NCBI GenBank assembly: GCA_049662005.1
Contig: JBATAT010000081.1
Coordinates: forward strand, 1 to 50,922
DNA: 50,922 nucleotides
DNA from: Tepidiformaceae bacterium
GTDB lineage: Bacteria > Chloroflexota > Dehalococcoidia > Tepidiformales > Tepidiformaceae
Reading direction: 5' to 3'
Shown here: positions 46,860-50,355 of the stretch, one piece after another
How the letters are laid out: the number at the start of each line of letters is the position of its first letter
Position numbering within the stretch: position 1 is the first letter of the stretch
Position numbers and translations under genes: made by a program
The notes under the pieces: model-generated
What the model was told of the DNA's origin: nothing
Databases searched by the model: none
What the model saw: the letters and a program-made list of their open reading frames with translations, nothing else

Positions 46860-46946
46860 CTACCAGGACTGGAACGGCGCCGCACCAGCAAGTGCGATGG
46901 TTGCGAGTGCCGCAACAGCGACGAGTGAGGAAAGAAGTCGAGCCAT
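46860..46946 (-). CDS. Unannotated 28-aa signal-peptide-like ORF (hypothetical)
   Basis: ATG lies 9 nt after GGAGG. MARLLSSLVAVAALATIALAGAAPFQSW* has a basic n-region, a hydrophobic core and an A-L-A motif, leaving 8 residues. It sits between the big regulator and DUF5317 on the same strand. Confidence 0.35.
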   Translation of the reverse strand: MARLLSSLVAVAALATIALAGAAPFQSW

Positions 46947-46983
46947 GGTGGGGTCCCTCCAGCGGTTTTTGATCTGGGCGAAC

Positions 46984-47016
46984 AGTAAACCGATGGTTCT
47001 CGCGAAACTCTCGCGA
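46984..47016 (-). promoter_or_regulatory. Two TCGCGAG heptamers phased 11 bp apart plus a candidate -10 (possible SARP box/promoter)
   Basis: Minus strand reads TCGCGAG-AGTT-TCGCGAG-AACCATCGG-TTTACT. The repeats start 11 nt apart, and the 3' repeat ends 9 nt before the TTTACT hexamer, about 40 nt upstream of the 28-aa ORF. Confidence 0.35.
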
Positions 47017-47214
47017 GATGACAACGCACAAGCGTACGAACGTAATCTTTCCTTTCTGAGCACTCGCGACATCTGAAACGATCCCGCACCCGCGCGAGCG
47101 AGGCGGGGTGCCCGGCCAGGGATGCGACGACCCGAGGGGAGACGCCGGAGCGAAAGTGAATGCGAGCGTGGCGGTTCCGTAGTGCCCTCGGAGGAAGACC
47201 AGGCCGGGCGGGAA

Positions 47215-50200
47215 TTAGACGGCGATTCCGGCCGCGATCTCTGCGCGCAGTTCGCCGAAGCGCTGCGGCGGGTGTTCGCCGAACTCCTGGCTGTACGTCT
47301 GGTCGTACTGGTCGATGAACGTAAGCGCCTGGACGACCTGGCCAGCACGGCTTCGGTAGCGGGCGAACTGGTAGGCAGCTTCTTCGTTGAACTGGTTGGC
47401 ACGCAACACCCGTTCCATACAGAGGGCCGCGGATTCGAAGTCGTTTCGGCCCGCGAAGTAGCCGGCCAGCATCGCGAGGGATTCCTGCGCGCGTTCTTCG
47501 AGACGAGAGCGGACAGTGGCCGCCCATTCGGTCTGGAATGTGGTTGCAAACGGGCCGGAATAGAGTTCGACCGCCTGCTGCAGGGCGCTGGCCCGTTCCT
47601 TCGAGCCTTCGGGTGAGCGGTAGGCGGACTCAATCGCACCCTCGAACTGCGCGACGTCCCAATCGAATTCGCCTTCGGGGTTCAGCTGGTAGATGCCATC
47701 GCTGCCCTTGATCACACTGGATTGATAAAGCGCCCGGCGGACGCGGTAGAGGTTCGAGTGGAAGGCGCTGTTGCACTTTTCGCGTGGCAGATCGGGGTAA
47801 AGCGATTCGACGGCTTCTTCCTTGCGGAGGCCTGCACGGTTCGAAAGCAGCAGGAAGAACATCTCCTTCGCGCGCGCGCTCGCCCATGCCTCGTCGGAGA
47901 GTTCGGTGCCTGCGACTTCCACCGCCAGCCGACCAAGAGCGTGGGCGCGTACCGCGGGGAACCTGGCCGGCGCTGCATCGGGCTCGGCGCCCGCAACCGC
48001 CGCAGACTCGAAGCTGTGGCGTTCGAGGAGATCCCGGAAGGCGGCGCCGATGGAGTGCCGCGAGGCGGCCCACTGGGCGAACATCGGGTCTTCGCGAACG
48101 ATGGGAACGAGGGCGCCAGCCATCCAGGGTTCTGGCAAGGCCGCGGCAACATGCGCGAGCGACTGCTCCGCGTCGGGCCGTTTGCCGGATTTGAAGTTCG
48201 CCATGGCCACCCGGTAGTAGGCGGTTGCCACCTGCGGGAGGATGTCCATCTCGGTGAAGCCTTCGGCCGCTTCGTTCGCCGCTGTGATCGCAACCGCGTG
48301 GTTGCCGGCGGCGAAATCGACGGCTGCTTGCTGGAGCTTACAGATCGCGATTTCGTAGGCGTTGGCTGAACTCACCGCAACGAGGAGCGCACGCCGGGAG
48401 AAGAAGTCGGCCTGGGAAATATCGCCGGCACCAAGCAATGCGCCAGACAGGCCGGCGATCGAAAGGGCCGCGAGGGATTCATCCAGTGCGTCGGTCGCGC
48501 AGATGCGGATGGCCTCTTCGTAATGCACGCGGGCGCGTTCGAAGTGGCCAAGGGCGAGTTCGGCATCGCCAAGCGAGGCGGTAGCGTAGGCAACGTTCCT
48601 CTGGTTCGCGCAGTTGCGGCCCTCTTCGACAGCCTCCTGGAGCACTGTAGCGGCGCTGGTGAAGTCGCCTGATTGGACGTGGGCCATGCCGAGGTTGTTG
48701 AGCACCCAGCCGAGGTTCGAAGAGCCGCCGAGCGAGCGCCAGCCTCGGGCCGCACGGGTGAGAACGGTCACGGCTTCGGGAGCGTTACCACGCATCGCGA
48801 GTGCCTGCCCGAGCGTCGACCGGGCAAGCAGGCCGAGCGGTTCGAGGTGGCGGCGTTCGCAATCGGTAATCACGGCGCGAAGCCGGTCCTCCGCGCTGAC
48901 GAAATCTCGCTCGACGGAGAGTTCGAACTCGGCAAGGCTGTAGTTCGCTTCGGTCTGAAGGTCGGGTTCGAGTTCAGGTGAGAGTTCTGCAAGCTGGAGG
49001 GCGGCTTTGCGGGCTTCTTCGTAGCGGCCCATCAACCGTGCTCCGCGGATTTTCGCCATAAGGGCGTGGCCGTGAGCAGTGGCGCCAACCCTTGCGTCAC
49101 GAAGAAGAACGCTGGCCTTCCGCGTAGCGTCATCAGGATCGCCGACATGGGAATCGAGACGGGCAGACATTCCTCGGAGCAGCGGCCGGCGGCGAATCGT
49201 CGGTTCACCGATGCAATCGAACGCTCGTTGGAGGAGGGTGTTGCAGCCCTGGATGATGAGGCGGGGGCTGTGTTCTTCGAGGAGGGCTGCCAGTTGCTGC
49301 TCGGTCCCGCCGGAACGGGCGAACTCAATCGCCTCGGGGATGTCGCCGCTGGCAACAAGGTCGTCGACTACCAGTTGCAACGCTTCCGCATAGCCTTCCG
49401 GATCGAGTTCATCGAATTCGCTGGCGATGAACTGGCGAAGGAGCGGATTCAGACGGAATTCGACCGGGGAAAGCTGTTCGCAGAGGAACTCACGGGATTC
49501 CATCCAGGCAGCAATCGCTCGCCAGGCGCTGCGCCCGAATTCCATCTCGACACCAGAACGCGTGATGGACGGCTGCAGTGACAGCTGCCGGAGGGTGGCT
49601 TTCAGTTCACTCGGAACCTTCGCCCAGACTTCTTCCTGGAGATACTGATCGAAGGCGGCGCGGCTGGCGCCTTCGGGGTTGGTTTCGCAGGCCAGCGCCG
49701 CCATGACACCGACTGGCCAACCATCAGTGGAATCGAGGATCGCCTGGACGTCACGGTTGGGACTGACCTCGGCGACCAGGTGCTCCACCTCATCGCGGGT
49801 GAAGGCGAGTTCGGCGCTATCAATAAGGAGAACATCGCCGGTCGCGATATCGCCACTGAGCGACGGCAGGAAGGGGCGCTCGCGGCCGAGCAGCACGGCT
49901 TCGTTGCCTTCGGGCAGGCACTCGAGCAGCCAGGTGAGGAGGTTCGTCGCCTCGCGACAATCGATCAGTTCCTGGATGTTATCGACAACGAGCAAGAGTG
50001 GAAGCTCGGAATGAGCGATTGCGCGGTGCAATTCGGCGCCAAGGTAGGCCTGGAGGTCACTCGGCTTGAGTGCGGTCGCCGGAGGTTCCACATCGCTTTC
50101 GCCCGAAAGGGCGACGCCAAACTGGTGCGCCAGGACTTCGGGCGCGCCGGAAGTAGAATCGAGAGTCAGCCAGACGGGGTGGTAGTCGACATCGGCTGCG

Positions 50201-50355
50201 AACTGGGCGAGAAGGGTGGTCTTGCCGAACCCGGCGGGCGCCTCGACCAGGGTGATGCCGTTGCCCATCGCTCCGTGCAGGCGCTTCAAGAGGCGGTCGC
50301 GCTGGATGGCTCGCCGCGAGACCCTGGGAATCATGGTTCGGCCGATGAAGCTCAT
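47215..50355 (-). CDS. Large STAND-type regulator: MalT-like AAA ATPase, TPR-like repeats, then C-terminal OmpR-type wHTH and BTAD (SARP module)
   Basis: Walker A APAGFGKTTL and Walker B LLLVVDNIQE, followed by about 500 aa of helical repeats. The wHTH region is LGRLAVEVAGTELSDEAW...FHSNLYRVRRAL. The BTAD region is ELYSGPFATTFQTEWAATVRSRLEE...NEEAAYQFARYRSRAGQVVQAL. 1046 aa. Confidence 0.85.
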   Translation of the reverse strand: MSFIGRTMIPRVSRRAIQRDRLLKRLHGAMGNGITLVEAPAGFGKTTLLAQFAADVDYHPVWLTLDSTSGAPEVLAHQFGVALSGESDVEPPATALKPSDLQAYLGAELHRAIAHSELPLLLVVDNIQELIDCREATNLLTWLLECLPEGNEAVLLGRERPFLPSLSGDIATGDVLLIDSAELAFTRDEVEHLVAEVSPNRDVQAILDSTDGWPVGVMAALACETNPEGASRAAFDQYLQEEVWAKVPSELKATLRQLSLQPSITRSGVEMEFGRSAWRAIAAWMESREFLCEQLSPVEFRLNPLLRQFIASEFDELDPEGYAEALQLVVDDLVASGDIPEAIEFARSGGTEQQLAALLEEHSPRLIIQGCNTLLQRAFDCIGEPTIRRRPLLRGMSARLDSHVGDPDDATRKASVLLRDARVGATAHGHALMAKIRGARLMGRYEEARKAALQLAELSPELEPDLQTEANYSLAEFELSVERDFVSAEDRLRAVITDCERRHLEPLGLLARSTLGQALAMRGNAPEAVTVLTRAARGWRSLGGSSNLGWVLNNLGMAHVQSGDFTSAATVLQEAVEEGRNCANQRNVAYATASLGDAELALGHFERARVHYEEAIRICATDALDESLAALSIAGLSGALLGAGDISQADFFSRRALLVAVSSANAYEIAICKLQQAAVDFAAGNHAVAITAANEAAEGFTEMDILPQVATAYYRVAMANFKSGKRPDAEQSLAHVAAALPEPWMAGALVPIVREDPMFAQWAASRHSIGAAFRDLLERHSFESAAVAGAEPDAAPARFPAVRAHALGRLAVEVAGTELSDEAWASARAKEMFFLLLSNRAGLRKEEAVESLYPDLPREKCNSAFHSNLYRVRRALYQSSVIKGSDGIYQLNPEGEFDWDVAQFEGAIESAYRSPEGSKERASALQQAVELYSGPFATTFQTEWAATVRSRLEERAQESLAMLAGYFAGRNDFESAALCMERVLRANQFNEEAAYQFARYRSRAGQVVQALTFIDQYDQTYSQEFGEHPPQRFGELRAEIAAGIAV

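Follow-up and report, generated by a model that had tools for sequence, protein, structure and literature searches.

A conserved micro-gene paired with DUF5317 downstream of a STAND-TPR-SARP regulator in Chloroflexota

Analysis of a 50,922-nucleotide stretch of DNA from a Tepidiformaceae bacterium of the phylum Chloroflexota (assembly GCA_049662005.1, contig JBATAT010000081.1, positions 1 to 50,922; hereafter the window) reveals a micro-gene of 28 codons between the gene for a large regulator and the gene for a membrane protein of the family DUF5317. An earlier note, made from the letters of the window, had drawn attention to an 87-nt open reading frame (ORF) about 270 nt downstream of the gene for a 1046-amino-acid regulator, on the same strand, with GGAGG 9 nt upstream of its ATG. 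We confirm the ORF, with a gap of 268 nt to the ATG and GGAGG at 46960-46956, and the 28-residue peptide given in that note agrees exactly with MARLLSSLVAVAALATIALAGAAPFQSW.

A micro-gene at the DUF5317 locus

The cassette is read from the minus strand, in the order regulator, 268-nt gap, micro-gene, 52-nt spacer, DUF5317 and a ketopantoate-reductase-like gene. Its features are as follows.

47215..50355, minus strand: regulator of 1046 amino acids, with a MalT-like STAND ATPase, a TPR middle part and a C-terminal SARP domain
46995..47016, minus strand: 22-bp box of two 11-bp direct repeats, TCGCGAGAGTT and TCGCGAGAACC, a candidate site for the SARP domain
46982..46987, minus strand: -10-like hexamer TACTGT, 7 nt past the box
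46956..46960, minus strand: Shine-Dalgarno motif GGAGG, exactly 9 nt ahead of the micro-gene ATG
46860..46946, minus strand: micro-gene, 28 codons plus TAG (87 nt), encoding MARLLSSLVAVAALATIALAGAAPFQSW
46824..46847, minus strand: hairpin 1, right after the micro-gene stop and present in the minimum-energy fold
46784..46818, minus strand: hairpin 2, GAAUCGCCCGCAUGG-UCAG-CCAUGCGGGCGAUUC, enclosing the ATG at 46807 and overlapping the first DUF5317 codons
46262..46807, minus strand: DUF5317 membrane protein, 181 amino acids from the ATG at 46807
45210..46202, minus strand: ketopantoate-reductase-like gene, matching TIGR00745 above its cut-off

Read on the minus strand, the micro-gene starts with the ATG at 46946-46944 and ends with the TAG at 46862-46860. 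MARLLSSLVAVAALATIALAGAAPFQSW has a basic N-terminus and a stretch of about 20 hydrophobic residues, with a conserved A-G-A-A-P and a tail of four residues. The micro-gene peptides as a group share the basic N-terminus, the approximately 20 hydrophobic residues and AxA-like motifs, a layout that suits either a signal peptide or a membrane anchor. The micro-gene is single copy in the window, where no second member of the peptide family was found.

The homologous ORF adjoins DUF5317 in 130 of the 131 loci examined. One set of loci was anchored on the regulator and was obtained by scanning one genome per species, followed by tblastn and direct reading of the loci. A second set was anchored on DUF5317 and came from a metagenome scan with an alignment of a distant subfamily (A4), which yielded 80 loci, 78 of them with enough upstream sequence. 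The earlier note had proposed looking in related genomes for a short ORF between the regulator and DUF5317, with a conserved C-terminal tail and synonymous-biased substitution. Such an ORF lies at the equivalent place, between the two genes, in 46/46 DUF5317-bearing regulator loci (window included), and one ORF, and exactly one that qualifies, precedes DUF5317 in 77 of the 78 DUF5317-anchored loci. Seven of seven more distant DUF5317 loci also contain a member of the peptide family. By comparison, our crude ORF finder, which asks for an ATG, a Shine-Dalgarno motif and a hydrophobic stretch within 18-45 amino acids, scores in 10% of random 480-nt tiles. A chance ORF in G+C-rich DNA is thus ruled out.

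The reading frame and the position of the stop are kept across loci, with TAG and TAA interchangeable. The start is ATG, some loci are one codon longer (MK...), and most carry a GGAGG- or GGAG/GAGG-type motif 7-11 nt ahead of the start. Among 43 distinct nucleotide versions, column entropy by codon position is 0.77 / 0.31 / 1.24, highest at third positions, and the pooled ratio of nonsynonymous to synonymous polymorphism (pN/pS) is 0.40 overall and 0.26 over the last 10 codons. This third-position variation indicates that selection acts on the protein. Full or near invariance is seen at residues R3, L14, A20, G21, A22, A23, P24, Q26 and W28. The peptide is consistently better conserved than both of its neighbors, as three loci illustrate by their identity to the window.

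L035: peptide 100%, DUF5317 82%, regulator 72%
L006: peptide 82%, DUF5317 68%, regulator 61%
L030: peptide 57%, DUF5317 43%, regulator 46%

The tail PFQSW stays constant while the regulator drops to 61% identity. Taken together, these patterns of conservation indicate that the micro-gene is a real gene under strong purifying selection, and one that is mostly unannotated. Two alternatives raised in the earlier note do not survive this comparison: a fossil of the DUF5317 N-terminus is at odds with a Pfam match of DUF5317 that already begins at profile position 11 of 151 and with an ORF conserved in its own frame, and the absence of any translation is contradicted by the codon-level evidence.

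Members of the peptide family, of which 71 are distinct, are 24-41 amino acids long; the ORFs measure 28-31 codons in the 46 regulator-anchored loci and 24-44 codons in the DUF5317-anchored ones. They follow a common pattern: the N-terminus is basic (M-K/x-x-R), some 20 hydrophobic residues come next, and small residues then form a cluster that mostly ends in A-P, after which the tail comprises only 2-5 residues, often aromatic or basic. Divergent examples from the DUF5317-anchored metagenome loci are MKARLLYLAYSLMVVGALVAAAAAPMGR, MVARLASLLIVCAVVATAVAGFMP and MHRFATLAVIIATVAVLAAVAFAGTAPWMMP. None of six diverse variants matched a Pfam or NCBIfam family beyond chance level, with E values up to 10 considered.

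Most copies of the micro-gene fall under the length limits of gene callers and are missing from protein databases, to which this work adds a family of genes for peptides of 24-41 amino acids. An exact cluster look-up in a collection of 15 billion proteins returned none of the 28-residue versions, while several 29-residue versions are listed there as “hypothetical protein.” This is consistent with a gene-caller length limit that excludes ORFs of less than 90 nt, the default minimum gene length of Prodigal.

Two copies depart from the family pattern. The sole disrupted copy among the 46 regulator-anchored loci is that of L001 (9297-9383), where codon 3 has changed from CGA to TGA (MA*LLSS...) in an otherwise intact cassette, through either pseudogene formation or an assembly error. 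The single exception among the 78 DUF5317-anchored loci is L160 (~960-986), in which the micro-gene has shrunk to MAAPIGWG: loss of the hydrophobic helix has joined the start codon to the conserved tail, while the Shine-Dalgarno motif and the downstream DUF5317 are retained.

Two longer minus-strand ORFs, 46262-47527 (421 amino acids) and 46860-47639 (259 amino acids), were rejected as open-frame artefacts of G+C-rich DNA. Both cross the intergenic region, the first to end in DUF5317 and the second in the micro-gene, and could mislead annotation.

DUF5317, the most constant neighbor

The comparison of loci firmly supports the micro-gene as an obligate genomic partner of DUF5317. The earlier note had treated DUF5317 as a bystander of the regulator and its mini-gene; we find instead that it is the steadiest partner of the peptide, and that the pair persists when it is inverted or when the regulator is absent or different. 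In L024, the micro-gene and DUF5317 are inverted as a unit and converge on the regulator. In L142, the pair is present with no regulator within 5 kb. Three distant loci carry other neighbors.

L166:3341-5879: a membrane-anchored HD-GYP-type gene between the peptide ORF and DUF5317, and an MFS exporter after DUF5317
L167:1972-3990: the same intervening gene and exporter, with a GerE-type protein as the adjacent regulator and a terminator-like hairpin directly after the micro-ORF
L164:2610-5749: two paralogous peptides on the opposite strand, one on each side of a single DUF5317, next to a GGDEF-EAL protein

These distant neighbors suggest a link to the turnover of cyclic di-GMP (c-di-GMP). In L080 (1179-1454) and L082 (4574-4846), a gene of about 90 codons directly follows DUF5317. 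Its product matches the Os1348 family of the NHLP clan (NF038399; E 6e-13 and 2e-12, respectively) and resembles precursors of ribosomally synthesized and post-translationally modified peptides (RiPPs). This gene is absent from the window's clade.

The five regulator loci that have no downstream DUF5317 also have no micro-ORF. The regulator homologues at these loci (L020, L025, L031, L033, and L037) are 46-51% identical to that of the window and may be paralogues with other targets.

The DUF5317 protein of the window matches PF17248 with 65.1 bits against a cut-off of 25 (E 9.5e-18, profile positions 11-150 of 151), and all 28 of its aligned relatives (28/28) match the same family. The family is of modest size, as a profile search recovered 731 cluster representatives at E up to 0.001. 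An AlphaFold2 model, with a predicted local distance difference test score (pLDDT) of 87, shows three transmembrane helices, a beta-rich domain (residues 83-143) and a fourth helix. Residues N72, G81, M83, P84, K112, D128, S143, G145, and D146 are invariant throughout the family. The positive-inside rule, applied by hand, predicts that the KLRRF loop and both termini are cytoplasmic and that the acidic beta-rich domain lies outside, with the invariant N, K, D, S, and D mostly within or at the edge of this outward-facing domain. If the N-terminal arginine of the peptide stays inside, the beta-rich domain would be on the same side of the membrane as the peptide tail. The composition of the invariant residue set looks more catalytic than structural.

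A literature search found no mention of DUF5317 or PF17248. What is new here is an undescribed pair of a peptide and a membrane protein in a regulatory module of otherwise known type. For DUF5317, the analysis provides a first firm functional context: a peptide partner that is obligate and a dedicated activator, to which the distant clades add neighbors for c-di-GMP turnover and export.

Regulator, promoter box, and intercistronic RNA

The regulator joins a MalT-like N-terminal part to a C-terminal SARP domain. Its N-terminal nucleoside triphosphatase domain (AAA_22/AAA_16, residues 15-148) contains the Walker A motif GFGKTT at residues 42-47 and is followed by a repeat-type sensor region, which is the layout of STAND/MalT proteins. 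The NCBIfam model of the MalT N-terminus matches residues 9-396 with an E of 1.1e-26 but below its equivalog cut-off, and the regulator also matches the MalT structure 8bob (E 1.4e-11). Several TPR families (TPR_12, TPR_2, TPR_8, and others) match residues 512-705, and a TPR_MalT hit stays below its cut-off. At the C-terminal end, BTAD covers residues 900-1040 with 38.5 bits (cut-off 22.1), and residues 835-1037 align end to end but weakly with residues 76-279 of the AfsR SARP domain (8hvr_I; E 0.074). No separate winged-helix match (Trans_reg_C) was found in the Pfam scan. The winged helix and BTAD that make up a SARP domain can thus both be traced, BTAD above its cut-off and the winged-helix stretch by the weak AfsR alignment. 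To our knowledge, all described small and large SARPs carry the SARP domain at the N-terminus; here, the ATPase takes that place and the SARP domain is C-terminal.

Full-length orthologues of the regulator, 53 in all at 41-74% identity, were found in the scan of one genome per species. All come from metagenome-assembled genomes of Chloroflexota (Dehalococcoidia, Tepidiformaceae, Candidatus Amarobacter, and others), and a few more homologues are 26-28% identical. Homologues are also present in Tepidiforma genomes. Carriers include abundant wastewater bacteria (Candidatus Amarobacter, locus L017). The link between mini-gene and regulator on which the earlier note was built holds beyond the window, as a full-length regulator homologue lies upstream in 29 of the 30 DUF5317-anchored loci whose upstream sequence reaches 2.5 kb or more. 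The two genes are 268 nt apart in the window and adjacent in most loci, and about 1.2 kb apart in the L085-type clade.

The promoter region 46984-47016, which the earlier note had singled out, proves to be the site of the box and the -10-like hexamer. The repeat unit of the box, TCGCGAGA-N3, occurs twice, with 8-bp cores at 47009-47016 and 46998-47005. This is the sole exact tandem in the window, which holds no further SARP-type boxes beyond chance. Across 41 aligned upstream regions, a near-invariant TCGCGAGAgttTCGCGAGAac lies about 50-70 nt ahead of the micro-gene ATG, and a TAnnnT-type hexamer, read by eye, is found at the same offset. In other clades, the 11-nt period is retained and the repeat sequence is altered.

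L153 clade (regulator ~28-39% identical): repeat ACGCGAGA
L054 and L055 (regulator 27-28% identical): repeat GTGACA
L080: repeat TTGTCAGT

Published SARP sites consist of direct repeats with a spacing of 11 or 22 bp, the 3' one of which lies near the -10 element (PMC10936776). The box agrees with this arrangement by sequence, having an 11-bp period and lying 7 nt from TACTGT. Thus, the box is likely the binding site of the regulator's SARP domain. From the SARP-type box, the covariation of its repeats with the regulator clade and the position of the regulator gene upstream, we infer that the regulator activates the promoter of the micro-gene. More generally, the sequences of these loci firmly support the view that a STAND-TPR-SARP regulator and a SARP-type promoter box usually go with the micro-gene.

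A close parallel is AfsR and its target afsS in Streptomyces. AfsR has the same repertoire of SARP, STAND, and TPR parts, and its target is likewise a small ORF that adjoins the regulator gene. In both systems, a 22-bp box of two 11-bp repeats lies near a weak -10 element, which is CACTGT in the afsS promoter and TACTGT here (PMC10936776). The box in the AfsR complex overlaps the -35 element, and within each 11-bp repeat a protomer touches just the first 8 bp (PMC10936776); these first 8 bp are also the conserved part of each repeat in our loci. The present system differs in its reversed domain order, with the ATPase N-terminal and SARP C-terminal, and in belonging to Chloroflexota rather than Actinomycetota. 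It also differs in its target, here a 28-residue hydrophobic peptide with proposed co-transcription of a membrane protein. AfsS, in contrast, is a soluble protein of about 63 amino acids. SARP-type promoter logic, so far studied in actinomycetes, is seen by sequence in Chloroflexota, with the domain order reversed.

Two palindromes were noted in these promoter regions. In the window, the first repeat core lies within a 10-bp palindrome, TCTCGCGAGA (47007-47018), so that the box also matches the plus strand with one mismatch. In L085 (3680-4860), and at equivalent places in L087-L120, the regulator and the micro-gene are separated by about 1.2 kb of internally repeated DNA with no convincing gene. 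The micro-gene promoter of this type is a TTGACA/-10 pair with a palindrome, GCTAATATATTAGC, between its elements, which may be an operator.

The spacer between the micro-gene and DUF5317 is strongly structured. The 83-nt stretch past the micro-gene stop folds with -51.9 kcal/mol (z = -8.3), and spacers across 71 loci have a median z of -2.7, compared with -0.04 in controls of the same length. Hairpin 1 keeps its pairing through paired two-sided changes, for example, at columns 15/40, 18/37, and 23/31. In 18 related loci, the G+C-rich core of hairpin 2 is invariant and its inner pairs covary (CG, UG, UA). The start of DUF5317 is ambiguous, being either the ATG at 46807 or an in-frame GTG/TTG at 46843, 46846, or 46852, and no clear Shine-Dalgarno motif precedes it, whereas the micro-gene has a strong one. 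We read the ambiguous start, the missing motif, and the hairpin as a device that would hold the expression of DUF5317 well below that of the peptide.

Possible roles of the peptide

The reading that we prefer, at about even chances, is that the peptide is a pro-peptide or substrate on which DUF5317 acts at the outer face of the membrane. The locus would then be a self-contained module of three genes: regulator, peptide, and DUF5317. The regulator would bind the 22-bp box as a side-by-side dimer, with the box replacing a -35 element, and the activated promoter would drive the micro-gene and, through read-through of the structured spacer, DUF5317. The peptide would sit in the membrane, keeping its basic N-terminus cytoplasmic and presenting A-G-A-A-P and the four-residue tail at the outer face, the side predicted for the beta-rich domain of DUF5317 and for the majority of its invariant Lys, Asp, Ser, and Asp. 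Made in excess, the peptide would be cleaved or modified by DUF5317 near AxA/AGAAP, which we prefer to a role as a stoichiometric subunit. With the box, the peptide, and the candidate residues for mutagenesis all defined, the module is directly testable.

A substrate is favored by the presumed asymmetry of expression, the flexible gene order, the duplicated peptides, the motif of small residues and proline, and the invariant polar residues of DUF5317. The terminator-like hairpin after the ORF in L167 and the two peptides per DUF5317 in L164 would fit the same reading. Furthermore, some clades have RiPP-like NHLP-clan genes or MFS exporters beside DUF5317. Lantibiotic-type RiPP operons comprise a precursor gene, an attenuating hairpin and then an enzyme gene. 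The cassette resembles them in its short and presumably highly expressed first gene, stem-loop, membrane or enzyme gene and dedicated activator, as well as in the NHLP-clan gene of L080 and L082; the cassette of the window differs in having no recognizable modification enzyme, leader-core organization, or transporter.

Several observations weigh against the substrate reading. The entire hydrophobic helix, and not the tail alone, is conserved within clades, which would suit helix-helix packing in a stable complex. The tail past the proline has just 2-5 residues, and any released product would therefore be very small. No activity could be assigned to DUF5317 by fold or by profile: the best E in a Foldseek search of its model against the PDB was 0.13, and neither a PDB-sequence profile search nor Pfam at E up to 10 returned a significant match besides DUF5317 itself. 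An identity as signal peptidase II was not supported: its structure 6ryp ranks 26th in Foldseek (E 7.2, template modeling score 0.38, probability 0.18). The spacing between box and hexamer and the assignment of the -10 element were made by eye, and the ORF of the L085-type clade has a canonical -35/-10 promoter, with candidate direct repeats further upstream, and a less structured spacer.

The resemblance to signal peptidase II lies in size (~170-180 amino acids), four helices and a small outward beta element, and 138 columns of 6ryp superpose at a root-mean-square deviation of 3.2 A, a match that is not significant and serves only as a lead. hhalign gave a probability of about 1%, Peptidase_A8 was not matched at E up to 10, and the two invariant Asp are present but in different motifs. 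The peptide's L-A-G-A recalls, in our reading, the lipobox L-A-G-C without its cysteine. A passing likeness of GG-x-MP to the Ser-Met-x-Pro box of signal peptidase I was not supported either, as the would-be catalytic Ser is not conserved.

A stable micro-subunit is a less probable but serious alternative to a substrate, and takes up the single-pass micro-membrane protein that the earlier note had listed among its alternatives. In such a complex, the peptide would be an uncleaved single-pass protein packed on DUF5317 and needed for its stability or activity, and the regulator would merely turn the pair on. Small subunits serve this role in several transporters and oxidases. KdpF, CydX, and AcrZ are similar: about 30 residues long, they have a single hydrophobic helix, their genes adjoin that of a polytopic membrane partner, and annotation often misses them. 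What makes a subunit plausible is conservation along the entire helix together with a tiny tail: the helix, including L14 and A20-P24, evolves slowly and is better conserved than the neighboring proteins, and the very short, aromatic-rich tail is what would be expected of an interfacial anchor. The near-universal pairing with DUF5317 points the same way. However, the micro-gene differs from those of KdpF, CydX, and AcrZ in its own strong Shine-Dalgarno motif, its structured spacer, and a gene order that varies in distant clades. There is no translational coupling, given the structured spacer, a Shine-Dalgarno motif on the ORF only and the hairpin of L167. Two peptide paralogues share one DUF5317 in L164, a gene intervenes in L166 and L167, and the invariant K, D, S, and D of DUF5317 look catalytic rather than structural. 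Each of these points against a subunit is indirect.

Autoinduction, the idea nearest to that of the earlier note, we consider unlikely. DUF5317 would process or export a pre-peptide as a new family of membrane peptidase or exporter, and a fragment of the tail of 5-8 residues, such as (G)AAPFQSW, would build up outside the cell and be re-imported to bind the TPR part of the STAND-TPR-SARP regulator, which would in turn activate the promoter of the peptide gene in a positive feedback. If true, this improbable scheme would amount to cell-cell signaling by peptides in Chloroflexota, a new kind of peptide communication outside Firmicutes, with RRNPP-like logic assembled from wholly different parts. 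The presumed regulator box right ahead of the peptide gene, covarying with the regulator clade, is in keeping with such a loop. TPR domains bind peptides in RRNPP receptors (PMC10075063), the pre-peptide is like SHP and PrgQ in size and shape (PMC7564271), and the tail differs among deep clades whose regulators are 26-39% identical. Against this, the cassette contains no oligopeptide permease or known processing genes, and the tail remains unchanged as the regulator diverges to 61% identity. The pair also occurs without this regulator (L142), with a GerE-type one (L167), or beside a GGDEF-EAL protein (L164). STAND regulators such as MalT, moreover, usually sense small metabolites.

As in the Rgg/SHP and PrgX/PrgQ systems of Firmicutes, a pre-peptide gene of about 20-35 codons, encoding a basic N-terminus and a hydrophobic body, lies beside the gene for a cytoplasmic TPR regulator. 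Activity there resides in the 7-8 residues at the C-terminal end of the peptide (PMC7564271, PMC10075063). The signature of RRNPP systems has five criteria: a propeptide of 10-100 residues, its secretion (a Sec signal according to SignalP, or export by PptAB for peptides of SHP/PrgQ type), a receptor of about 250-500 residues, TPRs and neighboring genes (PMC10075063). Here, the propeptide has 28 residues, the TPRs of the receptor lie at residues 512-705 (peptide binding is not implied), and the genes are direct neighbors in the window (268 nt, same strand) and at most loci, though not in L142. The regulator, however, has 1046 residues with a STAND ATPase and SARP, not the 250-500 residues of a helix-turn-helix TPR receptor. 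By the published definition (PMC10075063), receptor type and length place the system outside RRNPP. The constant partner, moreover, is DUF5317 rather than Eep, PptAB, or Opp, and the phylum is not Firmicutes. RRNPP pheromones usually diversify between pherotypes. The peptide described here, by contrast, is highly conserved and shows no pherotype diversification.

Very improbable, finally, are a cis-acting leader ORF for DUF5317, a type-I-toxin-like or bacteriocin-like membrane-active peptide with DUF5317 as immunity protein, and an untranslated DNA or RNA element: a short hydrophobic ORF does precede a structured region that encloses a possible DUF5317 start, but the amino acid sequence is conserved even where the regulator is 26% identical, third positions vary as under selection on protein, the arrangement differs in L164, L166, and L167 (ORF on the strand opposite DUF5317, or separated from it by another gene), which leads us to reject a pure leader or attenuator, and a peptide that can be 100% identical while neighboring proteins differ by 20-30% is too conserved for a toxin or bacteriocin.

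The ketopantoate-reductase-like gene at the end of the cassette comes after DUF5317 both in the window and at 23 related loci. It does not do so in distant clades, and its position is thus probably plain synteny rather than membership in the module.

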